64,000 nucleotides of DNA from Candidatus Omnitrophota bacterium (GCA_028716245.1 JAQUQW010000005.1:288-64287), one strand, 5' to 3'; counted from the first letter of the stretch, positions 19,428 through 48,583 are shown. Made by a program: numbers and translations. Notes: generated by a model not told the origin, from the sequence alone.

Positions 19428-19450
19428 ACCGGCAAACAATCCTAAAAGAA

Positions 19451-22354: not shown

Positions 22355-22358
22355 AGTT

Positions 22359-23837: not shown

Positions 23838-23838
23838 T

Positions 23839-31377: not shown

Positions 31378-31378
31378 T

Positions 31379-33556
31379 ATGGCCCAGATTATTTCTATTT
31401 TTAGCACCAAAGGCGGCGTAGGAAGGACCTTTATTGTCACCAACCTTGCCATTGCCTTAGCGCAAAAAATAACCAAAGGCAAAAAGGTTTTACTTTTTGA
31501 TACTGATTTACAGTTGCCGGGCAATATGGCGATGCTCTTGAATTTAAAGCCAAAAAAGCCCTTGGTTGATCTTATCCCCGAATGGCGTAAAGGTAATTAT
31601 ACGCCCTCCCAGATTGGCGAATATATCCTTCATTATCCCGCCGCAAGTATGGACCTGCTTCCCCTGGTCTTAACTGCCGAAGAAAGGCCGTATGTAGATG
31701 AAAAATTTATCTCTTGCGTTCTGAGCGATTTGATTAAGGAATACGAATTTATCGTTTGCGATAGCGGCAGGACATTTAATAAAGCGCTTGTGGCTATCCT
31801 TGAACAGACAAATTTGATTTTGCTGGCGATTAATCCCGACATCCTTTCGGTTTATCAGGCAAAAGAAGATATCAAGACACTGCAGTCACTATATTTTCCC
31901 GCCAAGATGATGCGTGTGGTTTTAAACCGCGCGGAAAGCACCGGCGCGGTATCCTGGCAGGAGGTAAGGGCGGCTTTGCCCTGCGATATCATCAGCCGCA
32001 TCCCGTCGGAGGGCAGGGTTGTGGGCTCGGCCTTAAACCGCGGCATACCCGTTGTGTTGGATAGTCCGCGCTCGCGCGTAAGTATTGTGCTGGATAAATT
32101 AGCTGAAGATTTAATCGCTCACCCGGATTTTTTTATCTCCCATAAAAAATTGGAAGCAGCTGTTCCGGCTGTGGAAAAAAAGAAAGAATTTTTAGAAGAG
32201 GATACCTCTTCTTTGGAATCCCTTTCCTTGGGCGGCCGTAAGCCCATTGAGAGAAAACTTACCGGCGAAGAGAAAATAGACGACTTAAAACAACGGGTGC
32301 ACAAGCGCGTTATTCAGGAATTGGATCTACGGCGCCTGGATCGCGTAGCCGGGGACCTGACAAAAATCGCGGATTTACGCCAGAAGACAATGAAAGCGAT
32401 TAATATCGCGCTAACTGATGAAGCCGGGGCGCTTATTTCTTCGCGGGAGGAGCGGGAGCGCCTGATCAAGGAGATCAGTGACGAAATTTTGGGCCTGGGC
32501 CCTTTGGAAGATTTGATCAATGACCCCGAAATTACCGATATTTTAGTTAACAATAAGAGCCAAATCTACATCGAAAAGCACGGCAAGTTAGAGTTAGTTT
32601 CCAAGCGTTTCGTATCCAATGATCAGGTGCGCCAGATAATCGAGCGCATTATCGCGCCCTTAGGCAGGAGGGTGGATGAGTCGGTGCCGATGGTTGACGG
32701 CCGGCTTTCCGACGGTTCGCGGGTTAACGCGATCATTCCTCCGCTTTCCCTTACCGGGCCGACGCTGACGATCAGGAAATTCAGCCAGGAGCGGCTTAAG
32801 GTTAATGATTTAGAACGGCTGAATGCTTTAAATAATACAATGGGAGAATTTCTTAGAGCCTGCGTTGTCTGCCGCAAGAATATAATTATTTCAGGAGGCA
32901 CCGGCTCAGGAAAAACTACGGTTTTAAATGTGCTCTCCGAGTTTGTTCCCGAAGGAGAAAGGGTGATCACGATTGAAGATGCCGCGGAATTAAAGCTCGA
33001 CCACCAGCACTGGATCCGCCTGGAGTCGCGGCCGCCGAATATTGAAGGGAAAGGGGCGATTTTCGTGCAAGATTTGTTCAGGAATTCTCTGCGCATGCGG
33101 CCTGACCGGATTATCATCGGAGAATGCCGCGGCCAGGAAGCTTTGGATATGCTCCAGGCGATGAACACCGGCCACGACGGCTCGATGACTACCATCCATG
33201 CTAACTCCACCCAAGATGTCTTAGCGCGCCTGGATTCGCTGATCCTGATGAGCGGTATCGAGATTCCCCTGCGGGCAATCCGCGAGATGATTGCCTCAAG
33301 CATCGATATGATCGTCCATACCGCCCGTTTTTCCGACGGCTCAAGAAAGATTACCCAGATAACCGAAATTACCGGGATGGCCGACGAGATGCATATCGGA
33401 TTAAACGATATATTTATTTTTGAGCAGTCCGGTATTGACAGCCAGGGAAAAGTCCAGGGAGAGTTTAAAGCCACAGGAATATTGCCGACCTTTCTAGATG
33501 ACCTACGCAAAAGTGGCAGTATCTTTTCAGAAGAAGTATTCAAAAAGAAAGAGTAA
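31379..33556 (+). CDS. fused CpaE/TadZ-like (MinD/ParA-fold) + CpaF/TadA secretion ATPase
   Basis: N-terminal KGGVGRTF deviant Walker A (CpaE-like). The C-terminal T2SSE ATPase has GGTGSGKTT, a DxxE box, an RPDRIIIGECRGQEA Asp box, and an NTGHDGSMTTIHANS His box. One 725 aa ORF. Confidence 0.8.
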   Translation: MAQIISIFSTKGGVGRTFIVTNLAIALAQKITKGKKVLLFDTDLQLPGNMAMLLNLKPKKPLVDLIPEWRKGNYTPSQIGEYILHYPAASMDLLPLVLTAEERPYVDEKFISCVLSDLIKEYEFIVCDSGRTFNKALVAILEQTNLILLAINPDILSVYQAKEDIKTLQSLYFPAKMMRVVLNRAESTGAVSWQEVRAALPCDIISRIPSEGRVVGSALNRGIPVVLDSPRSRVSIVLDKLAEDLIAHPDFFISHKKLEAAVPAVEKKKEFLEEDTSSLESLSLGGRKPIERKLTGEEKIDDLKQRVHKRVIQELDLRRLDRVAGDLTKIADLRQKTMKAINIALTDEAGALISSREERERLIKEISDEILGLGPLEDLINDPEITDILVNNKSQIYIEKHGKLELVSKRFVSNDQVRQIIERIIAPLGRRVDESVPMVDGRLSDGSRVNAIIPPLSLTGPTLTIRKFSQERLKVNDLERLNALNNTMGEFLRACVVCRKNIIISGGTGSGKTTVLNVLSEFVPEGERVITIEDAAELKLDHQHWIRLESRPPNIEGKGAIFVQDLFRNSLRMRPDRIIIGECRGQEALDMLQAMNTGHDGSMTTIHANSTQDVLARLDSLILMSGIEIPLRAIREMIASSIDMIVHTARFSDGSRKITQITEITGMADEMHIGLNDIFIFEQSGIDSQGKVQGEFKATGILPTFLDDLRKSGSIFSEEVFKKKE

Positions 33557-35859
33557 TGAATTTCTTCCGCAAAAACCAACCACTAAACCAACGCAGCCAG
33601 ATTGCCGTGATTATCACCTTTGTCATCGCGGTGATTTTTTTATTTATCGCGGTATTTATAAACCTCGCCAAAGTAAGTCAGACTAAGACTACAACCAGCA
33701 CTGCCGCGGATAAGGCCGCTTTGAGTTTAGCTTCGCAGCTGGGCAGTATGAGCCATTATTATAAGGATAAAGTGTTAAAGCTAAGCGGTTCGTCTTGTGC
33801 CACTCCTCCCTGCCAGGCATGTGACACTGATTGGTTGAGTTTAGCGACAATAATAGTGGCAATAGTTGGAGTTGCAGTTGGTATTTTTATTCCTCCAGTA
33901 GCACTTGGTGCCGCCGTTATAATGGGTGCGATTGCTATCAATTCGGCATTGCTCGGTGGAATAAACACGAAATTTAAGGAAATGACTGGATACAATGCTT
34001 CTCGAGAGAGTACATTATTCCAGGCCCTTCGCGATACCCAAAGCGATGATGTTGAGTTAAAAAGTATGGGGGCAGGCCTTTTTCGTGATGCGGAAACCGG
34101 CAAGGTTTACGATTTAAGTACTATTCCTGAAATGCGCAATGAAAAGAAAGTAAGCAGATTTGCCGCTTGGTATTATTTTTTGAGGCTTCCTTTGGTAGGC
34201 GACGAGGCGATGAAAAGAAGTTTAGATATATTTTTATTGGAGGGGATAAGGAGGTTTGTTGATGTGGATGAGTGGGATTCCAACCAATGGAAGATTAATA
34301 AGTTATCTTATGTGATTGGACCAGGTAATGGAAGCAGCAATTACGATGTGACCTGCTCCGCATCCTGCCCGGATTGGGTAAAAACCCCCGCGCAAGGACT
34401 GTTAAGAATGGTAAGGATGGATACTTCGGATAATGTCTACGGTGGATTTTTAAAGGATAAACTTCTTAGCTTATTACAGCGGTTAGAATGCGCATATGGT
34501 TTAACCTTTTGTAGCTCATTAGGGATATGCAGCAGTCTGACAGTAAGTTGCGGCGACGTAAATAACCTGATTGAAGATTTGAGAGAGTTTTTGTTAAGAA
34601 GCAAAGAGGTGTTAAACCTGCCGGTTTCTAAGCGGCTCGAACAATTAACACAATGGTTTCCGCTATGGTATAATTTTAAATATCATTGCGATCATCGATG
34701 GTTTAAAGACAGCTCGGGTAACTGTATCGATCCAAATAGCGACCCCAACCTAAATGACGACTATAAATACGATATTTATTTGCGCTTGACCCGCGACCAG
34801 ATTAAAATTAAGAGTTGGATTGCCGAGCTGCAAACTTTAAACAATAATAGAATTGTTCCGGATATAGCAAAGAAACACGGGGAATGTACTTGGGGCAGAG
34901 GTGCTTCAGTTAGTAGTACCTGTTATACGCAATACGGTTGCAGCACTTCTGAATGCGGTTGTCACTGTTGCGGCAGCGATTGCAGCGATTGTTGCTGTAA
35001 TACCTGTTGTTATCCGTCTTCTAGAAAATCACCCTGTGCTTGGGAAGGAACATATTATACTTGCGATCAGAATCCGCCCGTCTGTAGGAGTGGAGATTTA
35101 TATGGCGCAGTCCCAGGCTGGTGCGGTTCTCGCGCAGACCATGCAGGGTGCCATAGTAACTGTGGATGTGATGTCCAAAATTTTGATACTACTACTGGTG
35201 GAGCAAAAGATTTCCAAGGCCAGTTATCCTGGCGTCCTCCTATGGCGGGAAATTCGGATGGCACTGATAAGCCGACTGAAGTTGATCAGGCAATCAGAAT
35301 CCTGGGTGCCTTAAATGATGATCTCGCCAGGATAAAGACGTCTATTGGTGATTTAGCGGATAGCGTAGCGGCTAATCTGTCCAACACAGACGCTAAAAGA
35401 AATGAGATTATTTATGCCTGGAAGGATAAGCCCAAGGCGGATGGCAGCCAGCAATTTTCTCACTTTGTCAAAGTAAAGATTACTGGTTACCCTGAGAAAT
35501 TACCCAATATTACTGAAAGTACGGGATGGGGGTGGGTAGGAATTATTCCTGCTCCACAGAAGTGCCGCACGTTAAACGATTACCAGGGTGATTTTACGAT
35601 AAGCACCTGGCGTTATGACCAGGATCAGCCAACGGATATAGCCGGATGGAAACTGAAGCGCAGGAAAACACCCTCTACCGCTGAATTTGTCCCTGCACAA
35701 TTAGAAAAAATAGTAGCGGATGTCCAGGATAACGCTAAGATAGATTCAACCCAAAGTTATGTTGCTTCGATTTTAGACTACTCGATTGCCAGTTGCAGCC
35801 AAGCGCATTACGGACCGGAAAAAAGCGACATTTATATAACCGGAACTCAATGTGAATAA
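33556..35859 (+). CDS. TadG/TadE-like large pilus-associated protein with cysteine-rich region
   Basis: N-terminal TM followed by AADKAALSLASQ (Tad PF13400-like). 767 aa. A Cys cluster reads CGCHCCGSDCSDCCCNTCCYP. Confidence 0.5.
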   Translation: MNFFRKNQPLNQRSQIAVIITFVIAVIFLFIAVFINLAKVSQTKTTTSTAADKAALSLASQLGSMSHYYKDKVLKLSGSSCATPPCQACDTDWLSLATIIVAIVGVAVGIFIPPVALGAAVIMGAIAINSALLGGINTKFKEMTGYNASRESTLFQALRDTQSDDVELKSMGAGLFRDAETGKVYDLSTIPEMRNEKKVSRFAAWYYFLRLPLVGDEAMKRSLDIFLLEGIRRFVDVDEWDSNQWKINKLSYVIGPGNGSSNYDVTCSASCPDWVKTPAQGLLRMVRMDTSDNVYGGFLKDKLLSLLQRLECAYGLTFCSSLGICSSLTVSCGDVNNLIEDLREFLLRSKEVLNLPVSKRLEQLTQWFPLWYNFKYHCDHRWFKDSSGNCIDPNSDPNLNDDYKYDIYLRLTRDQIKIKSWIAELQTLNNNRIVPDIAKKHGECTWGRGASVSSTCYTQYGCSTSECGCHCCGSDCSDCCCNTCCYPSSRKSPCAWEGTYYTCDQNPPVCRSGDLYGAVPGWCGSRADHAGCHSNCGCDVQNFDTTTGGAKDFQGQLSWRPPMAGNSDGTDKPTEVDQAIRILGALNDDLARIKTSIGDLADSVAANLSNTDAKRNEIIYAWKDKPKADGSQQFSHFVKVKITGYPEKLPNITESTGWGWVGIIPAPQKCRTLNDYQGDFTISTWRYDQDQPTDIAGWKLKRRKTPSTAEFVPAQLEKIVADVQDNAKIDSTQSYVASILDYSIASCSQAHYGPEKSDIYITGTQCE

Positions 35860-38430
35860 CAAAAAACTTTTTTTCTTCAGTCTTTTATATTTTTTTTTCT
35901 GTTCGGCGCCGGCCTAGCGCAAGCAAAATCCGCAATTGATATCCTGGTTTTTTCCCCCCACCCCGACGATGAAACCCTCGCCTGCGGCGGCTCCATTAGC
36001 AAGGCAATCAAAGAAAATAAAAAGGTAAAAGTTATCTTTATGACTAACGGTGACGCGTATCCGGAGTCCGCGTCGATTTGGTTAAAAAAGAAGCCGCAAG
36101 AGCTTACTGCCGAAGATTATATTGTTTTTGGCAAGGAGCGCAAAAAAGAAGCGTTGCGTGCAATAAAAATACTTGGGTTGAAGCAAAAAGACGCGATTTT
36201 TTTGAATTATCCGGATAATGGGTTGTTTTCTCTTTGGACGCAAGAAGAATTTCCGGGTAAAAAAAAATATAGTAAAAGAAACCTGCTCAACGATATTAAG
36301 AATATCCTAAGCGATTACCAGCCCAAAATAATTTATCTTCCCCATCCCGCGGATAATCATAAGGACCATCAGGCAACAACACTTTTCGTCTATCTTGCTT
36401 TAAAAGAATTAAAGGATGCAGATAAGAATAATAGCTGGATAGATTCTTTAGAGCCCTATTATTATCTTGTTCACCGGGCTCTCAACGATAATCTTTTTCA
36501 GGTACCTGCGCGCCGCCAAGACATTGTTGATTTCAAGCAGCAAAAGTTAAAAGCGTTGAACCAATACCACACTCAATTAACCAGCGATAAGGAATTTTTG
36601 GAGGGTTTTATTAAGGATAGTGAATTATTCTGGGACGTGCCAAAAGATAAGCCAGTATATCTTAATAATCTTGAGACGGAATGGCAAGGAATAGCCGAAT
36701 ATATGCGGAGCAAGGGTTATAATGTGAATTTTGCTCCCGTAGTAGATGTCGCGGATAATATTGAAAACATGAACAATCCTTTGGTGAAAAAACAACGGAT
36801 GTATTCGCAAGACCCGCGAGTTGTCAGCGAAGTGGCTTGCGCGATAATCAGCGGAATGATTAAAGGCAAGATAATCCCGGTGCTAAAACATTTTCCCGGC
36901 TTAGGCCGAGTCGATGATGATACCCATCTTATGTTGCCTAAAGCAACCGTATCCGATACGGAACTTTATAAAAGAGATCTTTTTCCTTTTAGCGAACTCA
37001 TTAAGAAATATCCCGGTATATGGATAATGATTGACCATGCGATTTATCCCGGTTTAAGTGATAAGCCTGCTTCGTTATCTTATGAAATTCAAACTAAACT
37101 TTTGCGCGAAAAGTTGGGTTTTAAAGGAATAATTGTCGCGGATGAGCTATTAGGAATGCGGGCAATCAAGGAATATGCTTTAAGAGAGGCAATTAGAGAG
37201 CCTGTTATCGGCGAGATTGTAGCCAGGGCATTTGAAGCCGGAACGGATATTGCCGTAATTTATCCGCCTTGCGGTAATACCGAAAGAGTTGTTTCTGATA
37301 TAATTAAAAACGTAAGGCAAGCGGTAAAGGAGGGCCGGCTCGATGAAAAAAGCATCAATGAATCAGTTATCCGGATACTCAAAGAAAAAGAAAAGATTTT
37401 TGGCAGGCGTCTGGTTTATTTAGTAAAAAAAATGCCGCTTGCCGAAAAAATCGGGCAGAAGCTCGTATTCGATTATCATAACGATATAGGCGTATTTAAT
37501 AAATATAATATCGGCGGGGTTTATCTGCACGACCATAATGCCATAGATAAAACACAAAAAGATACTAAAATACCGCTATTTATAATCGGCCAACATGAAG
37601 GGGGCATAATTAGCCAGTATACGGTTAATAGCCGCAGTGCTTACGTGATTGGTAAAGAGTTCGAGGTGCTGGTAAAAAAAGATAAGGCGGATGTCGGGGG
37701 GAATATGCGCCTGCTCTGTTTAGCCGCGCATCCCGACGATGAAGACGGCGAAGCGCTGGTTTATTTCCGCGAAAAATTGAATTACCAAACTTACCTGCTT
37801 TTGGCTACGCGGGGAGAAGGGGGTAGGGATAAAATAAGTTCCGCTCTTGGCGATGAATTGGGGATTTTGCGCACCAAAGAGGAGGAGAAAGCCGCTTCGA
37901 TTTTAGGGGTAAGAAAGGTTTATTATTTAGGCAAGACAGATTTCGGTTACACCCTCTCAGTCGATAAGTCTCTTGAAAAATGGGGTAAAAAAGATACCCT
38001 GGAAAAATTAGTTTATTTTATCCGCCTGATCAGGCCGCAGATAATCATTACCAAACACAATGACTCGGATCCCAAAGAGCACGGTCAGCATCAAGCTTTG
38101 GTTATGCTTGCCAAAGAGGCGTTTGATTTAGCCGGCGACCCAAAAGCTTATCCCGGGATGATCAGGGATGGGTTATTGCCCTGGCAGCCGCTTAAGTTTT
38201 ATCAACGCTCAACAAACAATGAAGCGGATGCGGCAGATAACCAACTTAAAATTAATTCCGCAGAATATATCCCGGCGGAACGGAAAACAATTCATCAGAT
38301 CGCTTTTAAGTCATTGACCCAGCACCGCAGCCAGAGTAATTGGGAGCATTTAAGGACAAATATCCCAAAGCTAATCCGCTATCAATTGGTTAAATCCGGA
38401 AGCTGTTCAGAGAAAGAAAATTATTTTTAA
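35852..38430 (+). CDS. three-domain exopolysaccharide-modifying enzyme: PIG-L/LmbE deacetylase, GH3 (NagZ-like) hydrolase, second PIG-L deacetylase; 5' end frameshifted in a T9 tract
   Basis: A GTG at 35852 encodes the signal peptide MNNKKLFFFSLLYFFF. A single-T gap in the run 35890-35898 shifts into the long frame (...LFGAGLAQA...VFSPHPDDE...). The intact ORF is listed from 36040. GH3 motif KHFPGLGRVDDDTH; second deacetylase AAHPDDEDGE. Confidence 0.7.
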
Positions 38431-38443: not shown

Positions 38444-38995
38444 ATGAATATAGGAAAATATAATTTGCGCAAGGCAAGTATAAATATTTTTGCAGCGTTA
38501 CTTTTTATTACCGCCAATGCTTATGCCCAAGACCCGGAAAAGGAAATGTTCGATAAAGGCAATGACTATTTTAAAAGTAAGCTCTACGATAGGGCGATTA
38601 GCGCGTTTAATACCGCCATTCAGATTAAGCCGGGTTATAGCGCCGCGTATTATCACCGGGGGCGTGCCTACGCTGAAAACGGGGACATTGACCAGGCAAT
38701 CTCTGACTACGCCAAGGCAATAGAACTCAACGCTAATTATACAAAGGCATATTATCGGCGTGGCCTTGCCTATGCTAAAAAGGGTGATCTTGATCAGGCA
38801 ATCTCTGACTACGCCAAGGCAATAGAACTGGATCCCAAATTAGCCGGGGCTTATAATAACCGGGCCAGCGCGTATTTTCTAAAGCAGGAATACAATAAAT
38901 GCTGGGAAGATGTCCACAGGTTAGAAGCGTTGGGCGAGAAACCGCATCCTGAATTCCTTGAGCAATTGAAGAAGTTATCCGGCAGGGAAAGGTGA
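38444..38995 (+). CDS. secreted TPR-repeat protein (TadD-like candidate)
   Basis: Signal peptide and at least 4 TPR units; exact internal 35 bp duplication (38693-38727 = 38799-38833). Confidence 0.6.
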   Translation: MNIGKYNLRKASINIFAALLFITANAYAQDPEKEMFDKGNDYFKSKLYDRAISAFNTAIQIKPGYSAAYYHRGRAYAENGDIDQAISDYAKAIELNANYTKAYYRRGLAYAKKGDLDQAISDYAKAIELDPKLAGAYNNRASAYFLKQEYNKCWEDVHRLEALGEKPHPEFLEQLKKLSGRER

Positions 38996-40603
38996 ATTAG
39001 GCGCGGCGGTTTTCCTTACATAGATATTTATTTCTGTGTTGGGGCGTTCATGCAGATTGAGCATCTGCGTAACGGCTAATTTGCGGTGCCATATAAAATT
39101 ATCAAGCCATTTCAAAAAAGATGATTTTCCTTTGAAGGAAGGCATAAGATAGGATGGCGAAGGAAGAATCTGGGGCCTATAGTGGGTAATTTTCAGGTAA
39201 TACTCATTCACGTAGGGCATTATTTTTAGTTCGCTTTCTTTTTGCATCTCAGTTTCCTTATTCTGAAATCTACCCAAGAGAATAATTTCCGGTTTGTACT
39301 TTTCTAATACGGTTATAAGGTAGGCCGGCCGCAGGTTTTTAGTGAATATTCTTTTGGCGGAGATAACCGCTAGTTCAGGCGGGACCGCAATACCGGCATA
39401 AAAAGCAAAAATCGGCATATCGGTGAATATCCAGCGCACGCTTCGGCGATAACCTGACAATAACTCAACTGTTTTGCGTTCTTCCGCCGTCGTTTTATCC
39501 TTCAGGTCCATGAGCATGCCATTATATTTAAAAGGCAATCTTAGCAAGATCAGGATTATCAGGCTTAAGATTAACCAACGCATCCACCTTTTCTTTTTCC
39601 TCACGGCAAAAAAGCATTCGCTAAAACCAATTGCCGCCAGCCAACTCGCCGGGATTGCAAGAAGAAGATAGTAATACTGCCGGACAGGTTTATAATTAAG
39701 CAGGATGGCCAAAGCCGCCGCCAACCATAAGACCGGGAAAAAAGACCGGTATTTTTTTTCTCTGCAGAGAAGGATTATGCCAATCAGGGCAAGCAGAAAA
39801 ATATCCCAGTCCCGGAACAGCACTTTGTTACAGACAGCAAGAAACGTATCTTGATTATATCCGGGGATTAGCCCTTTGCTTGCAGTATAGTGGGGCTTAA
39901 TTAATTGCTGAATTAACATATAAAAATTAAAATGGAAAAATGTTATAATAATGGCAAAGTAAATCATGAAGGAACTCCCGAGCCACAGCGTAACAGGCAA
40001 AAGGGAGTGATTTCTGTCCTTTAAATTTGTTTTTTCGATTTGAGCTATTTCTAATATAATGAGCGGTATGAGAAAAATTGTAATTAACTTGATTTGTAAA
40101 GAAAGCGCCAGAAGAATTCCCGATAACACTAAAAAGTGCTTTAAATAAAATTTTTTATAAAGATGTATAAAATAAACTGAAAGCATCGCCAAGCTCAAAG
40201 CGGGAAGGTCGTTGGCGATCGAAATACTCAAGCGCAGGTAAGTGGCAGATAAAACTAAAAATATAATTGCCACAAGCGCGCAAAAACTTCCGCGCAGGCC
40301 TTTAACGGTTTGATAAAGCGCCCAGAGAAGCATGCCTGAGAAAACAAATATTAAGGTGCGCCCGGAGGCAACCGACTGGCCGAATAATTTAAGCCAAAAG
40401 GAAAGAATAACCGTCAATAAGGGTGGCTGGTCGCTCCAGATTTCTTTATAAAGAGAAAACCCCTTTAGGAAGAGGGAAGATTTCATCAATTCGTTCCCTT
40501 CGTTGGGGATAAATTCAAAGGTTTCTTTAATGGGAGATTTTACGATGAAGAATAGGGCAATTAAAATAATGAAGAAAAAAATGGCGGGTAAAAAACGACG
40601 CAT
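38975..40603 (-). CDS. GT-C fold glycosyltransferase, ArnT/PMT (GT83/GT39)-like
   Basis: 542 aa, ~12 TM; N-terminal loop ...IPNEGNELMKS (DE-like motif) typical of polyprenyl-P-sugar-dependent GT-C enzymes. Confidence 0.6.
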   Translation of the reverse strand: MRRFLPAIFFFIILIALFFIVKSPIKETFEFIPNEGNELMKSSLFLKGFSLYKEIWSDQPPLLTVILSFWLKLFGQSVASGRTLIFVFSGMLLWALYQTVKGLRGSFCALVAIIFLVLSATYLRLSISIANDLPALSLAMLSVYFIHLYKKFYLKHFLVLSGILLALSLQIKLITIFLIPLIILEIAQIEKTNLKDRNHSLLPVTLWLGSSFMIYFAIIITFFHFNFYMLIQQLIKPHYTASKGLIPGYNQDTFLAVCNKVLFRDWDIFLLALIGIILLCREKKYRSFFPVLWLAAALAILLNYKPVRQYYYLLLAIPASWLAAIGFSECFFAVRKKKRWMRWLILSLIILILLRLPFKYNGMLMDLKDKTTAEERKTVELLSGYRRSVRWIFTDMPIFAFYAGIAVPPELAVISAKRIFTKNLRPAYLITVLEKYKPEIILLGRFQNKETEMQKESELKIMPYVNEYYLKITHYRPQILPSPSYLMPSFKGKSSFLKWLDNFIWHRKLAVTQMLNLHERPNTEINIYVRKTAAPNSPFPAG

Positions 40604-40650
40604 AATGAAATTAATTTTATCCTATATTTATTGTTAGCGCAAGTCCAATA

Positions 40651-41724
40651 ATGAATTACTTAAGATTTCTTTTTATTCTGTCAAAAAACCGGTTGGGGAT
40701 TATTCCTTATCCGTCCCTGGTTACTTTTATCGTTACCTGGAGATGCAACCAGCGGTGTTTAATGTGCGGCATATGGAAAAAGGGGAAAAAATATGAAATG
40801 GCATTAGATGAGATTGGCGGCATATTCAGCCGGTTAAGGCCGTTGGATGCTGTGCGGATAACCGGAGGAGAGCCATTTTTAAGAGACGACCTTACGCAAA
40901 TAATTGACCTTATCGATAAATATACCAAACCCCCGGTAATTCATATTACAACCAACGGCACGTTGACAAAAAGGGTCCTGGATTTTATAAAAAATGTTAA
41001 AAATCCGCAAAATATCCATATAAAAATATCAATTGACGCGCTGAAAGAAGAGCACAACCGGATAAGGGCGGATAATGAATCATACGATAAAGCGATGTTA
41101 ACCTTAACCGAATTATCGGGTTTAAAACAAAAATACGGGTTTTATCTGGGGGTCAATCAAACAATAGTATCACAGGAGTGTTTCAATGATTATCAGGGCT
41201 TAAGGGGGATTTGCAATAAATACCATGTAAAATTATATCCGGTATTAGCCTATTCCAGTCCGCCGCTTTATGCGGCGGATGATTATTCTGACAAAATTCC
41301 GGAAGGATGTAAAACAAGCGTATTGGGGGGTTTTTCTCAACAGCAGATTATAGAGATGTTCAACATATTTGAAAAAGACCCGTCAGGATGGGATAATTTT
41401 GCTGAAAAGATAACCGCCAAATATTATCTTAAAAAAATACGCGAGCATTTATTGCGCGGGAAAAACCATACTCAACCAGAATGCGTTGCTTTGCGCAGCC
41501 ACTTACGTATACTTCCCAATGGCGACGTCCCGGTGTGCCTGTATAATCCCGCAATCGCAGGAAATTTGTTGGCAGAGTTGAATTTTAAAAAATTCTGGTT
41601 CAAGAATAAAAATATTGCAAAATACCGGCAGGATATCCGCAGGTGCCCAGGCTGTTGGGCAAAGTGCGAAGTCATTCCTAACGGGATATATAGCGGTGAT
41701 ATTATCAGAGCCATTTTTAGTTGA
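40651..41724 (+). CDS. radical SAM protein (CxxxCxxC) with Cys-rich C-terminal (SPASM-like) region
   Basis: WRCNQRCLMCGIW cluster near the N-terminus; C-terminal CPGCWAKCE. Confidence 0.7.
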   Translation: MNYLRFLFILSKNRLGIIPYPSLVTFIVTWRCNQRCLMCGIWKKGKKYEMALDEIGGIFSRLRPLDAVRITGGEPFLRDDLTQIIDLIDKYTKPPVIHITTNGTLTKRVLDFIKNVKNPQNIHIKISIDALKEEHNRIRADNESYDKAMLTLTELSGLKQKYGFYLGVNQTIVSQECFNDYQGLRGICNKYHVKLYPVLAYSSPPLYAADDYSDKIPEGCKTSVLGGFSQQQIIEMFNIFEKDPSGWDNFAEKITAKYYLKKIREHLLRGKNHTQPECVALRSHLRILPNGDVPVCLYNPAIAGNLLAELNFKKFWFKNKNIAKYRQDIRRCPGCWAKCEVIPNGIYSGDIIRAIFS

Positions 41725-41739
41725 GTAAAAGGGAGTAAG

Positions 41740-42477
41740 GTGCTTAAATTTTCGGTCATCATCTCGGTATACAATGAAGAACAGGCAGCCGCCCAGCTCT
41801 ACTATTCTTTAAAGAAAGTTATGGATGGATTAGGGCAAGCTTATGAAACTATTTTTGTAAATGACGGTTCAACCGACAAGAGCCTGGATATGCTAAAGAG
41901 TATTAACTTAAGCCCGGCGAATTTAGTCATTGTCGACTTAGATAAACATAGAGGACAATCTACGGCTTTGCAGGCGGGGTTTGATATTTCCCGGGGAAAG
42001 TTTATCATTACCATGGATGGCGACCTGCAGAATGATCCTGAGGATATCCCCCGTATGCTGGATAAGCTGCAAGAGGGCTATGATCTTGTTTGTGGCTGGA
42101 GGCATAACCGAAAAGATCCCCGGATTAAGGTAATTATTTCTAATCTTGTTTCTTTTTTTCTTCGGCTTATGGTAAAGCAGAATATCCATGATTTTGGCTG
42201 TCCCATGAGAATCTTAAAAAAAGAAGCCTTAAAGGATGTCTATTTGTCTAAAGGAATGCATAGATTTTTTACTTTACTAATGTTTAAATTGGGATATAAG
42301 ATTGGAGAAGTTGAAGTGAATCATCGTCCACGAAGATTTGGAAAGTCAAAATACAATATACACAACAGATTATTTGAGTGCCTATTTGTTTTTTTACGCA
42401 TTTCATTATATGATATCCGTAACTTAAGGGAATACCATGAACCGGATTATAAGATTAAGGGGGTAATTAGAAAATGA
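41740..42477 (+). CDS. GT2 polyprenyl-phosphate glycosyltransferase (DPM1/ArnC/GtrB-like)
   Basis: SVIISVYNEE, DGSTDKS, and TMDGDLQNDPEDIP motifs; 245 aa. Confidence 0.8.
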   Translation: MLKFSVIISVYNEEQAAAQLYYSLKKVMDGLGQAYETIFVNDGSTDKSLDMLKSINLSPANLVIVDLDKHRGQSTALQAGFDISRGKFIITMDGDLQNDPEDIPRMLDKLQEGYDLVCGWRHNRKDPRIKVIISNLVSFFLRLMVKQNIHDFGCPMRILKKEALKDVYLSKGMHRFFTLLMFKLGYKIGEVEVNHRPRRFGKSKYNIHNRLFECLFVFLRISLYDIRNLREYHEPDYKIKGVIRK

Positions 42478-42815
42478 AGATTATTAATTTAAGCAAAAAC
42501 GCGGTCTTAGCAGATAAGGCAAGGATGGCGGATACCTTCTGGAAGCGGCTGGTAGGGTTGCTTAACCGCAATTCACTGGAAAAAGGAGAAGCACTCGTTC
42601 TAAAACCGGCAAACAGTATACATACATTTTTTATGGGTTTTCCCATAGATGTCTTATTTTTAGACAAAAATGGAAAGGTTATTGGTTTGTTTCCTGTGTT
42701 TAGGCCTTTTCACATTACCTCTGTTTATTTTGGCGCTTCTCTAGCTATTGAACTGCCCGCGGATACCCTCCGGCTTACTCAAACAAAATTAGCGGATAGC
42801 ATTAAAATCGAATAA
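42474..42815 (+). CDS. DUF192 (COG1430) family protein
   Basis: 113 aa; ...RLVGLLNRNSLEKGEALVLKP.NSIHTFFMGFPIDVLFLD...; 4 nt overlap with the upstream GT2. Confidence 0.5.
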   Translation: MKIINLSKNAVLADKARMADTFWKRLVGLLNRNSLEKGEALVLKPANSIHTFFMGFPIDVLFLDKNGKVIGLFPVFRPFHITSVYFGASLAIELPADTLRLTQTKLADSIKIE

Positions 42816-43098: not shown

Positions 43099-43365
43099 GT
43101 GCAAAATAAAAAGGTGTTTCTCGACGATAATAAGAGTTTAAGAATGAATTATTTTATGCAGTTTATAATGGCTTTTAAAAAGGCCGATAGAAGCCATCTT
43201 GCGCAAAAAAATTTTTCTGATAAAAAAGCGCAATCAATATTTGAATATGTCATATTAACGGCAGTTGTAGTGACGACTGTTTTAATTTTTGGGCCGTATT
43301 TCGGTAAGATAAAAGATTCTTGTGACAAAGCTTTTAATGCCGCGGTTACGGAGATAGTAAAATGA
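43099..43365 (+). CDS. divergent Flp-type pilin-like protein (true start probably internal)
   Basis: ...KKAQSIFEYVILTAVVVTTVLIF... pilin-like segment. Confidence 0.4.
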   Translation: MQNKKVFLDDNKSLRMNYFMQFIMAFKKADRSHLAQKNFSDKKAQSIFEYVILTAVVVTTVLIFGPYFGKIKDSCDKAFNAAVTEIVK

Positions 43366-43505
43366 GAAACAAAGCGCAAAGCACAATTGAATACGCGTTA
43401 TTAATTGCCATTGTGGCAGCGGCATTTTTGGCGATGAATGCGTATATGCAGCGTTCGGTACAGGCAAATTTTAACGTAATTGAAGAGCAGATAAATGCGC
43501 AGTAA
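43362..43505 (+). CDS. Flp-family pilin (47 aa; below the ORF-track size cutoff)
   Basis: MRNKAQSTIEYALLIAIVAAAFLAMNAYMQR...; ATGA overlap with the upstream gene. Confidence 0.6.
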   Translation: MRNKAQSTIEYALLIAIVAAAFLAMNAYMQRSVQANFNVIEEQINAQ

Positions 43506-43526
43506 TTAGAAGGAGGGAGGTTAAAG

Positions 43527-43694
43527 ATGCGTAACAAAAAGGGCCAGAGTATCTTGGAGTACGTGATTGTATTAACCGTCATAGTTATAGCGGTTGCTCT
43601 AGCGGCGACCAAGTGGATTAAACCCGCGGTTGATCAGGGATTAAATGATGCTTCAAAAAGTATTAATAATGCTACAGGGCAATTGCCAAAATAA
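43527..43694 (+). CDS. Flp-family pilin (55 aa) with canonical G/XXXXEY site
   Basis: MRNKKG|QSILEYVIVLTVIVIAVALAA...; RBS AGGAGGGAGG. Confidence 0.7.
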   Translation: MRNKKGQSILEYVIVLTVIVIAVALAATKWIKPAVDQGLNDASKSINNATGQLPK

Positions 43695-43717
43695 TTATTT
43701 TAGGGGAGGTGAATAAG

Positions 43718-44071
43718 ATGTTTAACAAAAAGGGCCAGAATACAGCGGAATACGCGATACTTATCGCGTTGATAATCGCGGCAGCAGTGGGAATGCAGAC
43801 TTACGTTAAAAGGGGCTTACAGGGAAGGGTGCATGAGGCGGTTAGGAATACCGGCCAGGCACTACCAGATGTGGGAGGTGCCAGTTTGAGTTTTAGCGGC
43901 AACCAGTATGAACCGTATTATACTGAGTCTGACACAAAAGTAAAAAGCGCCAGAACTGCTCAGGAAACACTGGGTAACCGCGGCCAGATTACCCGCTCTA
44001 ACGTACAAGAAGCAACCACGGTTGATATTGGAGGAACTGAGAAAGTCAATAGCACAGCCGGAGCTGATTAA
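43718..44071 (+). CDS. Flp-type pilin with ~80 aa C-terminal extension
   Basis: MFNKKG|QNTAEYAILIALIIAAAVGMQTYVKRGLQGR...; RBS GGGGAGGTG. Confidence 0.65.
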   Translation: MFNKKGQNTAEYAILIALIIAAAVGMQTYVKRGLQGRVHEAVRNTGQALPDVGGASLSFSGNQYEPYYTESDTKVKSARTAQETLGNRGQITRSNVQEATTVDIGGTEKVNSTAGAD

Positions 44072-44084
44072 GGAGGTGAATAAG

Positions 44085-44429
44085 ATGTTTAACAAAAAGG
44101 GCCAGAGCACATTGGAATACGCATTGATAACCGCGGTGATAATTGCCGGGCTTTTACTGATGCAGCATTATATGAAGCATGGTTACGCCGGAAGATTGAA
44201 ATCAGCCAGTGATGATATCGGCGAGCAATATGACCCTAGCAAATATAATGCAACATTTAACGTAACCAACAAGAGTTATACGCAACAGACTGCTACAGGC
44301 GGAGCCACAACCCAACAGTATCTTGATTTAGGCGATGGTTCTAATGCTGGTAGGGTGCAGAAAAAAGAGAGTGTTGCCAACGAAACGATTGATGCCTGGG
44401 GCCAGAATGAGAGCTTGTATAGTAAATAA
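44085..44429 (+). CDS. Flp-type pilin with C-terminal extension
   Basis: MFNKKG|QSTLEYALITAVIIAGLLLMQHYMKHGYAGR...; RBS AGGAGGTG. Confidence 0.65.
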   Translation: MFNKKGQSTLEYALITAVIIAGLLLMQHYMKHGYAGRLKSASDDIGEQYDPSKYNATFNVTNKSYTQQTATGGATTQQYLDLGDGSNAGRVQKKESVANETIDAWGQNESLYSK

Positions 44430-44763
44430 AACAATCGGGATACGCAGGGCGCAAAGCGTAGCTGAATATAGCGTTTGTTTGGCACTAGTTTTAGCCGCGC
44501 TTTTGGGGATGCAGATTTATGTAAAAAGAGGCTTGCAGGGAAGATACAAAGAATTGGTTGACCAGGCGGCTAAACAGGCCGCAAGCGCGGCTCAATTGGC
44601 TACAAGCCCGAAACAATATGAGCCGTACTATGTTCAGGACAGATTTAGAGTCAGCCAGTCTAAAATAACCAATGAAACTAGCAGTTCCCCCGGCAAAATG
44701 AATCGGGATTTTGTTGAGGATAGCACGGCAGTTAAAGGCACAGCCACAAGGGATGTGCAATAA
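44407..44763 (+). CDS. Flp-type pilin-like protein with C-terminal extension (start uncertain)
   Basis: ...IRRAQSVAEYSVCLALVLAALLGMQIYVKRGLQGRYKE... Confidence 0.5.
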   Translation: MRACIVNKTIGIRRAQSVAEYSVCLALVLAALLGMQIYVKRGLQGRYKELVDQAAKQAASAAQLATSPKQYEPYYVQDRFRVSQSKITNETSSSPGKMNRDFVEDSTAVKGTATRDVQ

Positions 44764-44764
44764 A

Positions 44765-45940
44765 ATGCGTAAAAGAGCCCAGAGCATAAATGAATATGTG
44801 TTGGTGATTGCCCTAGTTACCTTAGCTGGTATAGGTATGCAGATTTATATTAAACGGGGCATACAGGGTATAGTGAAGACCTCTGCCGACAGATTAGCCG
44901 GTGAAAAAGGAGATTCAGTTGTGTATACGGGCAGTGCCAAAAGCATTTTACCCCGTGCGCAGTGGAATCCCGTTGCCATCGCGTACGCGGATAATAAGCT
45001 CAACGGCGGATTTTTTGTGGCTGAGGTAACCGGCAACCAAGTTTATTATAATCTTTATTCCGATAGCAGCAACCTTAATAATAAAACAGTTATTGGCGGG
45101 CAGGACTTAGCCAGCGGTGATTTTACCAGTTATGACTGGGAGGGTTATGTTGACGCGGTTTATGATAAAAACGGCAATTTAATTCAGAGTTTTACTCCCA
45201 AGCAGGCAAGGGCTGACTATGCTCCATATGAAATACTCTCATTAAATACTGCGGCGAATAAATCCATGGTCCAAAGTGGAGTGATGGAATTAGGCCTGGT
45301 TGCCTTTGACCAGAAAGATCATCCGTTGAAATTTACGGCGGACAAAAAAGTTATCGTACATACTGTTTCAAAGCATAGCATCAGCCCGCAAAATTTAGCC
45401 GCGGCGAATTGGCATCCGGCGATGACAGCGTATCAGGTGAAAATGGTACAAAATAATATTCCAGGATTTATCCAGGCAGAAGTGCAAGGCAATATGGTCT
45501 ACTATTATACATTCACCACCGATATCAAAAACAAGATACTTTTCGGCGGAGAGAATCTGCACACGGGGGATTTTACCCAATTCGGACCGGATGGTTTTCC
45601 CATCTCAACCGTAGATAGTAATCTCACTGTGCTCAGGACCTACAGCGGTTATGTAACCGATCCGGTAACCAAGGAGATTACGGGTATAATCGGCAGCGAC
45701 GGCAACATTTATGGGCAAAACCAGATAGTAACAATAAGCCCGGTGCTTCCAACCACTGGCCCGGCAACGGTTGCTTCTCCGATGACAACAAAGACCATCG
45801 ACCATGACACGACTCATGTTACCGGAGCATGGACCGCGGTTTATAAATTGGAAAACGCAAACACATTCGGCGCTAGGGACAAAACCGGTTTAAATAATAA
45901 TAATTTAAATGCTGGTAACAACGTGACGGGGCACCAATGA
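44765..45940 (+). CDS. giant Flp-type pilin (391 aa) with duplicated ~130 aa C-terminal repeat module
   Basis: MRKRAQSINEYVLVIALVTLAGIGMQIYIKRGIQG..., then two homologous blocks (...FFVAEVTGNQVYYNLYSD...GGQDLASGDFTSYDWEGY... / ...FIQAEVQGNMVYYYTFTTD...GGENLHTGDFTQFGPDGF...). Confidence 0.6.
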   Translation: MRKRAQSINEYVLVIALVTLAGIGMQIYIKRGIQGIVKTSADRLAGEKGDSVVYTGSAKSILPRAQWNPVAIAYADNKLNGGFFVAEVTGNQVYYNLYSDSSNLNNKTVIGGQDLASGDFTSYDWEGYVDAVYDKNGNLIQSFTPKQARADYAPYEILSLNTAANKSMVQSGVMELGLVAFDQKDHPLKFTADKKVIVHTVSKHSISPQNLAAANWHPAMTAYQVKMVQNNIPGFIQAEVQGNMVYYYTFTTDIKNKILFGGENLHTGDFTQFGPDGFPISTVDSNLTVLRTYSGYVTDPVTKEITGIIGSDGNIYGQNQIVTISPVLPTTGPATVASPMTTKTIDHDTTHVTGAWTAVYKLENANTFGARDKTGLNNNNLNAGNNVTGHQ

Positions 45941-46326
45941 TAACACGGGTTAGAAAACACAGATTAAACAAAGCAAAGGCGCAATCGACATTAGAATACG
46001 CCGTAGTCGTTGCCTGCGTAGTGGCAGCGCTTTTAGGTATGCAGTTTTACATCAGGCGGGGAATACAGGGGAAATTAAGGCAGGCAGCGGATGAGACCGG
46101 TGAGCAGTATACGCCGTTGAACGTGGATTCGAATATTACCACGCAAACAACGTCGACTACAACGGTAACGCAAAGTTTAACTCCATTAAACAGGGCGCCC
46201 GGCGTTCCTTTAAATGATGAGTATGATTTACCTGTATACGGAATAAAGACAGATACAAGTATTGATGAAACCACTACAAAAGACGGACAAGAAACATTAG
46301 GAGAGTTTGAAAATGGCTTATTTTAA
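45937..46326 (+). CDS. Flp-type pilin with Thr-rich C-terminal extension
   Basis: ...KAKAQSTLEYAVVVACVVAALLGMQFYIRRGIQGK...TTQTTSTTTVTQS... Confidence 0.6.
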   Translation: MITRVRKHRLNKAKAQSTLEYAVVVACVVAALLGMQFYIRRGIQGKLRQAADETGEQYTPLNVDSNITTQTTSTTTVTQSLTPLNRAPGVPLNDEYDLPVYGIKTDTSIDETTTKDGQETLGEFENGLF

Positions 46327-47326
46327 TAAAAAGGCGCAGAGTTTGACTGAGTTAGCTACTTTTGGCTCGGTACTTTTATTGGTGCTCTCCTTTTTTATCA
46401 GTTATGGGATGCGTTATAATTACCAGCAGGAGATACAGATGCGCGCTTTTCGCACCGCCCTTGCGCAGGCCTATACTAATACCAACCGGCCGGATGCCTC
46501 AGCTTCGGTTGTGTTGGTTGATGATAGGCATATACCGGATCCCCGCGATATGTTTGGCGCGGGTAGTATCGTTCCGGTGGAAGGCGGCGCTGAGGTAACC
46601 TGGGGCAATACTATGCAGGATGGATATCTCAATGTTACCAATCCTCCGCTTTTGCCCACGATAAAATACGTATTTAATGATCGGAATCCTGCAAACAGAG
46701 CGGAACGTGAATATAAAACCGCCGGTTATAATTATATTGATAATGCTTATCCATTCTATGTTATATTGCCTGGTAATACCGCGCCACAGTTAATAACCTG
46801 GGTAAATGTAAGGAATTACCAGCCTACCCCGGATTCGCCGCAACAGGCTATGGTATTGTTACCGAATCAAGATAAAGAGGTAATTACTGAGCTTTATTTG
46901 AAGACGGCGGGCCCGACGCCGGGATATATAAAATTTCAGATTATCGGAGTCAGGACTAATCCGCCCAATGGCGGTGATGGGACGCCCATTGACCAGATAT
47001 ATTTATTAAGTCCATCTTCAGGAGAGATCAACCCTAATTATATGCAATTAAATAATGATGTTGATATGAATGGTACTCCCGATGTAACTCCTGCTAATAT
47101 TCAAGGGCTATTATTGGAGGATAAGCAGGATATCCGGCGCAGCGGAACTATTACAATACAAGAGACTCCCGGGAAAACTATAAGCACCAGCACATACAGT
47201 TTTAAGGATAAAGCCGGGAATCCCACGACAATTACCCATAAAATTAGGAGTAGTTCAGGGGTGGAAGAGATTAATTTTCCTTTTGAGAGGGGAGGTGTTC
47301 CTTCGACATGGACAACACAAAAGTAA
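46313..47326 (+). CDS. TadE/TadF-like pseudopilin (339 aa)
   Basis: MAYFNKKAQSLTELATFGSVLLLVLSFF (TadE-like N-terminus), then a large periplasmic domain. Confidence 0.55.
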   Translation: MAYFNKKAQSLTELATFGSVLLLVLSFFISYGMRYNYQQEIQMRAFRTALAQAYTNTNRPDASASVVLVDDRHIPDPRDMFGAGSIVPVEGGAEVTWGNTMQDGYLNVTNPPLLPTIKYVFNDRNPANRAEREYKTAGYNYIDNAYPFYVILPGNTAPQLITWVNVRNYQPTPDSPQQAMVLLPNQDKEVITELYLKTAGPTPGYIKFQIIGVRTNPPNGGDGTPIDQIYLLSPSSGEINPNYMQLNNDVDMNGTPDVTPANIQGLLLEDKQDIRRSGTITIQETPGKTISTSTYSFKDKAGNPTTITHKIRSSSGVEEINFPFERGGVPSTWTTQK

Positions 47327-47565
47327 AAGCCCAAGTTGCGCTTGAGTTTGTCACCGCTTTTATTTGCACCATTCTTTTCTTGGTGGCAACCGCGCAAATA
47401 TTTGTCTGGTTCGGAAACACCATCGTTAACCGGAATAAAGCGTATGAAGAGACTCGCGCTGCACAGTGGCAATGGTTTAATCAGCCCGGTGATCCAATTA
47501 ACCCGGTGATAGTGGATTTCTATAATCAAAGCGATTATCCTCTAGATATATTCCATAAGAAATAA
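47308..47565 (+). CDS. TadE-like small pseudopilin
   Basis: MDNTKVKAQVALEFVTAFICTILFLVATAQIF... Confidence 0.5.
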   Translation: MDNTKVKAQVALEFVTAFICTILFLVATAQIFVWFGNTIVNRNKAYEETRAAQWQWFNQPGDPINPVIVDFYNQSDYPLDIFHKK

Positions 47566-47568
47566 AAA

Positions 47569-47739
47569 ATGAAAAAAAAAGGGATGAGCGTGGTAGAATA
47601 TAGTTTATTGATTGCCATAGTGATTGCCGGACTTTTGGCAATGCAGGTTTATGTTAAACGGGCGGTTAATGGACGCTGGAAGGAAACCGGAGATGTGTTT
47701 GGTTTTGGCAGGCAGACGGATAAAACGCTTCTAAAATGA
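47569..47739 (+). CDS. Flp-family pilin (56 aa); A9 homopolymer in codons 2-4
   Basis: MKKKG|MSVVEYSLLIAIVIAGLLAMQVYVKRAVNGRW...; ATGA overlap with tadB. Confidence 0.7.
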   Translation: MKKKGMSVVEYSLLIAIVIAGLLAMQVYVKRAVNGRWKETGDVFGFGRQTDKTLLK

Positions 47740-48581: not shown

Positions 48582-48583
48582 AG

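Follow-up and report, generated by a model that had tools for sequence, protein, structure and literature searches.

A candidate lipid-linked glycosylation module and its exported deacetylase/hexosaminidase within the Tad pilus operon of an Omnitrophota lineage

Within the Tad pilus operon of one lineage of the Omnitrophota, a small set of genes is found that may specify a lipid-linked periplasmic system of monosaccharide glycosylation, recruited into the operon and acting on its pilins. This proposal, to which a probability of about 0.5 is assigned, stems from the analysis of a stretch of 64,000 nucleotides (GCA_028716245.1 JAQUQW010000005.1:288-64287; in the following 'the window', at its full length) of the metagenome-assembled genome (MAG) of a Candidatus Omnitrophota bacterium, and from the comparison of its genes with those of related loci. 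The Omnitrophota are an uncultured phylum of bacteria with very small cells, thought to include predators and parasites, and Tad pili are the proposed organ of their attachment to the host. The conserved core of the set consists of a GT-C-type glycosyltransferase, a glycosyltransferase of family 2 (GT2) and an exported enzyme in which a domain of glycoside hydrolase family 3 (GH3) is placed between two PIG-L deacetylase domains (hereafter PIG-L/GH3), and whose gene contains a run of nine T residues (T9) where two reading frames meet. The features in question, with positions counted from the first letter of the window, are:

35852..38430, plus strand: exported PIG-L deacetylase/NagZ-type GH3/PIG-L deacetylase (Pfam PIG-L, twice, and Glyco_hydro_3)
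35890..35898, plus strand: T9 run joining two frames of the PIG-L/GH3 gene, a candidate recoding site
38975-40603, minus strand: GT-C of the PMT_2 or 'GT39' type, 542 amino acids (Pfam PMT_2, E 4.2e-11), a predicted periplasmic transferase
40651-41724, plus strand: radical S-adenosylmethionine (SAM)/SPASM enzyme, 357 amino acids (Pfam Radical_SAM 1.7e-18, SPASM 7.4e-5)
41740-42477, plus strand: GT2 of the ArnC/GtrB/PgfS/DPM1-like type, 245 amino acids (Pfam Glycos_transf_2 2e-30)
42474-42815, plus strand: DUF192 protein (COG1430), 113 amino acids, no signal peptide (Pfam 4.2e-15), its gene overlapping the GT2 stop by 4 nucleotides

The last four of these genes had been singled out in an earlier interpretation, made without database searches (the sequence-only reading), as a candidate module for pilin glycosylation splitting the Tad locus. 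Their coordinates and families were borne out by the open reading frames (ORFs) and by Pfam (PMT_2, Radical_SAM/SPASM, Glycos_transf_2 and DUF192), and all four sit within one and the same Tad locus, which encodes RcpC, a secretin, TadZ, TadA, TadB, TadC and Flp-type pilins. The limits then set for the module, 38975-42815, have to be revised, the conserved unit extending upstream to the PIG-L/GH3 gene, which had been missed.

The search for homologues of the GT-C gave 169; those of 35-86% identity from the Omnitrophota were traced on contigs and in GTDB species genomes, and their flanks were screened with the proteins of the window. The core (GT-C, GT2 and PIG-L/GH3) is present in Tad loci at 11 further Omnitrophota loci (10 distinct sequences), with GT-C identities of 35-86%. 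Within the Tad locus, the GT-C adjoins the GT2 and the PIG-L/GH3 gene in L001, L002, L003, L004, L006/L007, L009, L010, L024 and L137, and L014 and L016 offer partial views of the same set beside pilin genes. The co-occurrence with tad loci, which the sequence-only reading had proposed as a check, holds, therefore, for the GT-C and the GT2, but not for all four genes together. The order of the genes varies, the GT2-GT-C pair being found 5' of the rotamase-RcpC-secretin-TadZA genes in L004, L024 and L137, as opposed to 3' of the TadG-like gene, and L002, L009 and L013 contain three or four GT-C paralogues and two GT2 genes. Since such rearrangements and deep divergence have not removed the genes from the Tad operon, a Tad pilin or pilin-like protein is most plausibly the acceptor. 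For a reverse test, the TadZ-TadA protein served to collect 80 metagenomic Tad loci (36-61% identity). Neither the GT-C, this GT2, the PIG-L/GH3 nor the radical SAM gene is present in any of the 80, so that the link is conserved and lineage-specific and not generic to Tad systems. All genes of the module are under purifying selection, with ratios of nonsynonymous to synonymous substitution rates (dN/dS) of 0.17-0.31.

Other occurrences of the GT-C are less telling or of a different kind. L008 and L012 are short contigs, uninformative for context; in L011, a GT-C pair lies at the end of the contig with an insertion sequence (IS) element adjoining; in L041, a 30%-identical GT2-GT-C pair is encoded elsewhere in the genome. 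Cyanobacterial homologues of the GT-C (33-39% identity) are accompanied by GT-Cs of other families and by a polysaccharide deacetylase, in clusters devoid of Tad genes. A gene for a 531-residue protein beside the GT-C in L003 and L004 was considered as a further GT-C and discarded, on the basis of no Pfam match and of an hhalign probability of 1.5% against the GT-C profile. As a separate observation, L014 (JAIWAR010000014.1) is binned as a Methanosarcinales archaeon MAG and contains Omnitrophota-type Tad pilins, GT-C, GT2 and PIG-L/GH3 (41-57% identity); the contig has probably been mis-binned. Some Omnitrophota are reported to prey on methanogens of the Methanosarcinales, and co-abundance with the host is one possible reason for the mis-binning.

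The family of the GT-C was established, as the sequence-only reading had proposed, by profile search, the PMT_2 match (residues 58-187) scoring 43.8 bits against a cut-off of 26.1, and an NCBI entry named 'glycosyltransferase family 39' is 100% identical to the protein. An AlphaFold2 model (pLDDT 83, pTM 0.87) used as a query in Foldseek retrieved STT3/AglB/PglB and ArnT as best neighbours (E ~1e-7, TM up to 0.57, probability 1.00), followed at lower ranks by ALG12/9, Pmt4, Emb and AftA. The modelled fold, with multiple membrane helices and a periplasmic domain at the C-terminus, is, thus, that of the STT3/ArnT/PMT class (GT-C_A), which leaves protein and lipid acceptors undistinguished. No NCBIfam family, ArnT included, was matched by the GT-C, nor was any solved structure, again including that of ArnT, when PDB sequences were searched with phmmer or with a 40-sequence profile; membership of the ArnT family finds no equivalog-level match and no arn genes among the neighbours examined. 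In the first loop, the DEG motif of 102 out of 108 homologues reads NEG in the window, residue 34 being Asn, as it is also in the closest relatives (P0001-P0003 and P0006), with E35 kept and D58 invariant. A catalytic role of the first-loop Asp would be suggested by its position, the PDB profile search having given no alignment for the GT-C. The dN/dS of the GT-C is 0.20-0.24, indicative of purifying selection despite N34.

The closest solved relatives of the GT2 are ArnC (PDB 9hwj, 6e-35), GtrB sll0501 (3e-25) and the dolichol-phosphate mannose synthase type enzyme of P. furiosus, DPMS (1e-15). In NCBIfam, ArnC ranks at the top with 143 bits and PgfS second with 116 bits, both far under the equivalog cut-offs, so that the protein can be assigned to the subgroup and not as an orthologue. 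The DXD-type motif is present ('MDGDLQND'). The alignment covers residues 9-221 of the 322 of ArnC, i.e. the catalytic and interface part, and, since it ends at residue 221, the enzyme is taken to be a short form devoid of the C-terminal membrane helices; the C-terminal transmembrane anchor of the ArnC/GtrB form is indeed lacking in the 245-residue protein, and its relatives in the other loci are similarly of 233-246 amino acids. Such a short form resembles PpgS or DPM1. In L004 and L137, the GT2 and GT-C genes overlap and run in the same direction. The logic of a GT2 and a GT-C cooperating in extracytoplasmic transfer from a polyprenyl-phosphate donor, on which the sequence-only reading was built, fits the families found.

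The PIG-L/GH3 gene is the most constant partner, as it is found in the Omnitrophota GT-C loci for which sufficient flanking sequence is available. The top PDB matches of the GH3 part are all beta-N-acetylhexosaminidases (NagZ, YbbD, LpqI and Thermotoga NagA); the motif KH(F/I)PG(H/L)Gx4D(S/T)H is present as KHFPGLGRVDDDTH, aligned to KHFPGHGKTADDSH of 5bza, and the Asp of 'VADE', aligned with 'LSDA', corresponds to the nucleophile. The PIG-L parts match diacetylchitobiose deacetylase and BshB in the PDB, and their zinc-binding motifs are found as SPHPDDE in the stop-free frame upstream of the called gene and as AAHPDDE in the second domain. The family is sharply bounded, with 55 clusters below 1e-130 and the next generic GH3 at 1e-25, and its named members are all Omnitrophota. 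More than 25 members have clean in-frame signal peptides, about 12 have shortened gene calls, and the enzyme is accordingly predicted to act outside the cytoplasm. Its dN/dS is 0.17, even at dS 1.4.

How the exported form may be produced in the window is peculiar. The called ORF begins at 36040, and its frame is open already from 35860. This stop-free frame encodes FFFLFGAGLAQA followed, after the cleavage site, by KSAIDILVFSPHPDDE, namely a hydrophobic core, an AxA cleavage site and, then, the SPHPDDE of PIG-L, and the open stretch 35860-36040 contains no ATG, GTG or TTG. In a different frame, 'VNNKKLFFFSLLYFFF' is opened by a GTG at 35852, itself overlapping the TadG-like stop codon. The start and the n-region of the signal peptide are, therefore, in one frame, the remainder of the protein is in another, and the two meet at T9. 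With T10 (or T7) a single ORF results, which begins with a textbook signal peptide, MNNKKLFFFSLLYFFFLFGAGLAQA, cleaved before KS. Altogether, six distinct loci (the window, L001, L006/L007, L003, L004 and L010) have this T9 and require one extra nucleotide there, and the PIG-L/GH3 proteins of the other five are 41-88% identical to that of the window where the N-terminal part was aligned; the gene is in frame in L009 and L024 (both T8), L013 and L137. Positions 35890-35898 are the only run of nine or more T residues in the 64-kb window. As to runs of nine A residues, there are only two: one at 36259, about 370 nucleotides past T9 in the same gene, which codes for KKK and is not conserved in L006, and one at 47572, where the last of the short pilin genes starts (ATGAAAAAAAAAGG).

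Runs of nine A or nine T residues have the classical length for transcriptional slippage. A homopolymer of at least nine A/T residues that joins overlapping ORFs, at six loci and under purifying selection, makes T9 a candidate for programmed recoding through transcriptional slippage or -1 frameshifting. Phase variation is also possible, and so is a homopolymer assembly error shared among the loci. That the gene is a pseudogene was rejected in view of the dN/dS of 0.17. A non-canonical in-frame start (ATA or CTG) was judged less probable, as in L001 it is closely preceded by an in-frame TAG, such a start would leave the signal peptide without a charged n-region, and the other frame always supplies a GTG or ATG followed by KK or RR and a hydrophobic beginning. 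The level of the enzyme is probably limited by the need for recoding. A precedent is found in Shigella mxiE, the product of which is made by means of one extra nucleotide at a U run (PMC1088944). As in mxiE (PMC1088944) and in Thermus dnaX, a nine-nucleotide run lies between overlapping ORFs and the addition of one nucleotide fuses them into the functional product; as in mxiE, the gene belongs with an envelope-spanning secretion system. Unlike both, the site is in the region coding for the signal peptide of an exported glycan enzyme, in the Omnitrophota, and is predicted here from sequence. A practical consequence is that automatic annotation shortens the protein, the called products being of 796 or 828 amino acids with the signal peptide lost.

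The two remaining genes of the sequence-only module have a different standing. The radical SAM enzyme (Radical_SAM 67.8 bits; SPASM 23.4 bits against a cut-off of 21.5) has the cluster motif CX3CX2C as C32-x3-C36-x2-C39 and, on the SPASM side, C-x12-G-x4-C; no named radical SAM subfamily of NCBIfam attains its cut-off. The gene is present in L001, L002, L006/L007, L010 and L013 and absent from L003, L004, L009, L024 and L137, and, where present, it is embedded among glycosyltransferase genes, so that it is an optional member of the glycosylation set. Of three homologues examined in other phyla (about 40-50% identity), two are in glycan clusters, one flanked by GT4-like and GT9 genes (L055) and one within an O-antigen-like cluster (L056), and the third adjoins a B12-radical SAM gene (L054). 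This gene association favours a sugar-directed role over one in peptide maturation. The DUF192 gene, instead, follows TadZ-TadA, several genes away from the glycosyltransferases, in L004, L024 and L137, and it is found in 22 of the 80 module-free Tad loci (L057-L134), mostly just after TadZ-TadA or TadB/C; for these reasons it is regarded as a Tad accessory gene, and the notion of a four-gene module does not hold. Papers that mention DUF192 give no function for it, most matches to the term being DUF192x prefixes.

The candidate acceptors are encoded immediately downstream:

43099..47739, plus strand: about 11 genes for Flp/class III-type pilins and pilin-like proteins, with a K-[GA]-Q-[SN]-x-x-E-Y N-terminus plus a hydrophobic helix

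The mature sizes range from about 42 to about 390 amino acids, and an orthologous series is conserved in L001-L004, L006, L009, L014, L016 and L024, consisting of a Flp-like pilin of about 42 residues, one of about 50, several of about 95-120 and larger pilin-like proteins. In the pilins of about 95-120 residues, the C-terminal parts contain 15-33% Ser+Thr. The Ser/Thr-rich pilin extensions invoked by the sequence-only reading hold only to a moderate degree: the C-terminal parts of the window pilins of about 110 residues contain about 20% Ser+Thr against a background of 10.2 +/- 2.2% in the window, and dense patches are limited to a few proteins (12 out of 20 residues in the pilin at 45937-46326, 10 out of 20 in the protein at 46313-47326 and 9 out of 20 in the TadG-like protein). 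The patches are compatible with O-glycosylation of Ser/Thr-rich regions. N-glycosylation was considered on account of five N-x-S/T sequons in the 114 residues of one pilin and set aside, as they are not conserved in the orthologues (none in L006).

The rest of the Tad locus is as follows:

27918..35859, plus strand: upstream Tad machinery, i.e. SurA-like rotamase, RcpC, secretin, TadZ-TadA fusion ATPase and TadG-like protein of 767 amino acids (Pfam)
29725-31377: Tad secretin with a C-terminal TonB_C domain, recurring in L001, L004 and L137
31379-33556: TadZ (ParA/CbiA-like) fused to the TadA ATPase in a single protein of 725 amino acids, recurring in L001, L004 and L137
38444..38995, plus strand: periplasmic tetratricopeptide repeat (TPR) protein, with a signal peptide cleaved between AYA and QD (TPR families in Pfam)
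47736..49468, plus strand: TadB and TadC platform proteins (T2SSF; Pfam)

The upstream order, from the rotamase to the TadG-like protein, is the same in L001, L004 and L137, and full-length TadZ-TadA fusions are common among the 80 metagenomic Tad loci. After the TadG-like gene there come PIG-L/GH3, TPR, GT-C (minus strand), radical SAM, GT2, DUF192, the pilins, TadB and TadC. The TPR protein, with homologues in L001, L002, L006, L009 and L010, is probably, by analogy with TadD, a part of the Tad machine and not of the glycosylation set. Upstream of the rotamase, an uncharacterised protein of 692 residues separates it from genes for FIST, histidine kinase and response regulator-GGDEF proteins (window 21419-25026, minus strand; L004 17977-21602; L137 1875-5566). 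The trio is kept beside the Tad locus in these three divergent genomes, with a PilZ gene in addition in L137, which suggests control of the pilus by cyclic di-GMP. Some 8 kb 5' of the first Tad gene, at 18135-21204, a flavin amine-oxidase-like protein and two GT2s of the Glyco_tranf_2_3 type (283 and 302 amino acids) are encoded, which are outside the conserved module. At the other end, a giant ORF of at least 3931 codons (52208-64000, plus strand) begins about 2.7 kb past TadC and leaves the window; no Pfam match was found in its first 1930 residues. In L002, a gene for 11285 amino acids directly adjoins TadC, and both cases fit the adjacency of giant ORFs and pilus genes reported for the Omnitrophota.

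On the basis of family membership and gene neighbourhood, the following course of events can be envisaged. At the cytoplasmic face of the membrane, the short GT2 would use a nucleotide sugar to load undecaprenyl phosphate. The residue loaded would most likely be an N-acetylhexosamine (HexNAc) such as N-acetylglucosamine (GlcNAc), a prediction made because N-acetylhexosaminidases are the only matches of the GH3 domain and because the PIG-L parts resemble GlcNAc deacetylases. The lipid-linked sugar would, then, be flipped across the membrane, a step for which no flippase was identified, and the GT-C would transfer it in the periplasm to Ser/Thr residues of pilins or pilin-like proteins of the Tad system, either ahead of assembly or in its course. 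The exported PIG-L/GH3 enzyme may subsequently N-deacetylate and/or trim the HexNAc, leaving a free-amine (cationic) or shortened glycan, and its production would need the additional nucleotide at T9, by slippage or -1 frameshifting, so that its level might be low or tunable. Where present, the radical SAM/SPASM enzyme may modify the sugar or its lipid-linked form, while the DUF192 and TPR proteins would serve the Tad machine, outside the sugar pathway. In its complete form, in which periplasmic HexNAc O-glycosylation of Tad pilins or tip proteins by a dedicated GT-C is combined with slippage-dependent PIG-L/NagZ/PIG-L editing to yield a tunable, possibly cationic coat, the scheme is a tentative one, and unlikely to be right in every part.

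Several observations weigh against a pilin acceptor, or against one or another element of the scheme. The window GT-C carries Asn at the first-loop position that is Asp in nearly all its homologues, and its activity could be altered as a consequence. The identity of the sugar is predicted through guilt by association, via the relatives of a partner enzyme. In L013, the module is present and no Tad gene lies within 18 kb. The shortest Flp-like pilin, which could be the major subunit, is devoid of Ser/Thr in its C-terminal part, and Ser/Thr is just as abundant in the pilins of L059, a locus with no visible module; as L059 is the sole usable module-free Omnitrophota-like locus, Ser/Thr richness fails to discriminate between loci that have the module and loci that lack it. 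No modification density is seen in the solved Tad pilus of Caulobacter. Finally, a PIG-L/GH3/PIG-L homologue of 1028 amino acids (49% identity) is encoded away from Tad genes and without GT-C or GT2 in L138 (ERZ27247363 k141_846524, 10001-13087), beside TraG, TraC-like, PrgI, T4SS_pilin and LysM/M23 peptidase genes, which implies that the exported enzyme need not act on the product of the GT-C; these conjugative type IV secretion neighbours hint that it may serve envelope-spanning machines more generally.

Among the alternatives to a pilin acceptor, the one to be reckoned with most, albeit somewhat unlikely, is that the GT2 and the GT-C modify lipid A, the core of lipopolysaccharide (LPS), peptidoglycan or another surface polysaccharide by an Arn/Flm-like logic. 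Tad assembly, adhesion or self-protection would require the modification locally, and the glycan concerned would be edited by PIG-L/GH3. The kinship of the GT2 with ArnC, its best named relatives, and the place of ArnT among the top structural neighbours of the GT-C agree with it, as does the presence of a deacetylase next to a GT2/GT-C pair, which mirrors the lipid A amino-sugar pathways; the nearest GT-Cs outside the Omnitrophota, in their cyanobacterial multi-GT-C clusters with polysaccharide deacetylase, suggest a glycan acceptor, and the L138 enzyme gene adjoins that of a LysM/M23 cell-wall hydrolase. However, NCBIfam gives no ArnT match for the GT-C, and the genes examined next to the module did not include any identified as arnA/B/D/E/F-like or lpx. 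The association with LPS or lipid A genes, which the sequence-only reading had named as the outcome that would speak against pilins, was not seen in the neighbourhood. Genes for a housekeeping modification of the envelope would hardly be expected to remain within the Tad operon at identities of 35-86% and after several rearrangements. Moreover, deacylation by ArnD and NaxD is a step of the cytoplasmic face, whereas the deacetylase is exported here.

It is more improbable that the system is directed to a host or prey, with the exported enzyme stripping and deacetylating terminal GlcNAc at the site of pilus contact, from the surface glycans of the partner or from released oligosaccharides scavenged as amino sugars, and with the GT2 and GT-C protecting the cell's own surface or being unrelated. 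A predatory or parasitic way of life has been connected with the Tad systems of the Omnitrophota (PMC10066038), the Tad locus adjoins a giant ORF of the type found in host-interaction loci, and the matches of the enzyme, to diacetylchitobiose deacetylase for PIG-L and to exo-hexosaminidases of GlcNAc-oligomer catabolism for GH3, as well as its occurrence without glycosyltransferases in L138, would be in keeping with such a role. A Sec signal peptide accounts, however, for export to the periplasm only, no route across the outer membrane being evident; exo-acting NagZ-type enzymes are poor at breaching walls; and the co-occurrence of GT2 and GT-C with the enzyme in nearly all loci would be left without an explanation. 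Very improbable, in turn, is the absence of any functional link, i.e. a mobile or hitch-hiking glycosyltransferase cassette that was inserted in an ancestral Tad locus and kept by linkage. The variable presence of the radical SAM gene, the variable GT-C copy number, the rearranged gene order and the IS element adjoining the GT-C genes in L011 could be so explained, but not the fact that the cassette has been kept with the Tad genes after several rearrangements and at identities as low as 35%, nor the purifying selection on the module, nor the overlap of the PIG-L/GH3 start with the TadG-like stop, which suggests translational coupling.

Glycosylation of Tad pilins by the module can be set against known systems. 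In P. aeruginosa, the pilin is glycosylated by TfpW, a GT-C encoded beside pilA (bioRxiv 10.1101/2020.04.19.049825). With TfpW (P. aeruginosa group IV) the window shares a GT-C in a pilin locus and, if the proposed scheme is right, would share a polyprenyl-phosphate monosaccharide donor and periplasmic O-glycosylation of a type IV pilin. Unlike the window, TfpW serves a type IVa pilus and not a Tad/Flp one, its sugar, D-arabinofuranose (D-Araf), is made by a separate unlinked cluster, it has a periplasmic tetratricopeptide-type repeat domain of its own, and its locus is without a GT2, a radical SAM enzyme or an exported deacetylase/hexosaminidase partner. In streptococci, a GtrB/PgfS-type GT2 and a GT-C place a single glucose or N-acetylgalactosamine on extracytoplasmic Ser/Thr-rich regions (PMC12041528). 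The likeness to the GtrB/PgfS and PgtC2/PgfM1 pairs lies, on the proposed scheme, in an ArnC/GtrB-like GT2 that makes an undecaprenyl-phosphate monosaccharide and a GT-C that transfers it, PgfS being also the second-best NCBIfam match of the window GT2. The streptococcal GT-Cs are, however, of the YfhO type, in Gram-positive organisms, with adhesins and membrane proteins rather than pilins as targets, whereas the window has a PMT_2-type GT-C, in a diderm, within a pilus operon and with an exported editing enzyme. ArnC/ArnD/ArnT and FlmF2/NaxD/FlmK display the same three-part logic, namely a GT2 loading undecaprenyl phosphate, a deacylase unmasking an amine and a periplasmic GT-C, and with the Arn pathway the window shares a GT2 closest to ArnC and a GT-C fold close to ArnT. 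It departs from both in the lack of an ArnT-level sequence match and of other arn or lipid A genes nearby, in its home in a Tad operon and in a deacetylase that is of the PIG-L family, fused to GH3 and exported, so that it would act after transfer.

Both the components and the logic of GT2 plus GT-C are already known, and what is new is their conserved residence in a Tad operon, the exported PIG-L/NagZ/PIG-L partner and the T9 site. No precedent was found for a dedicated Tad-pilin glycosylation system. The main paper on the Omnitrophota phylum discusses Tad and contains no word beginning with 'glycosyl', and a 2026 preprint, in which glycosyltransferases appear only as mobile cargo, records the adjacency of pilus genes and giant ORFs without mention of the module. 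Beyond the usual model organisms, the conserved T9 provides a testable case of programmed slippage. If the module does decorate the pilus, it would represent a testable determinant of adhesion, host range, or phage or immune evasion in the Omnitrophota, and Tad pili would join the glycosylated type IV filaments.

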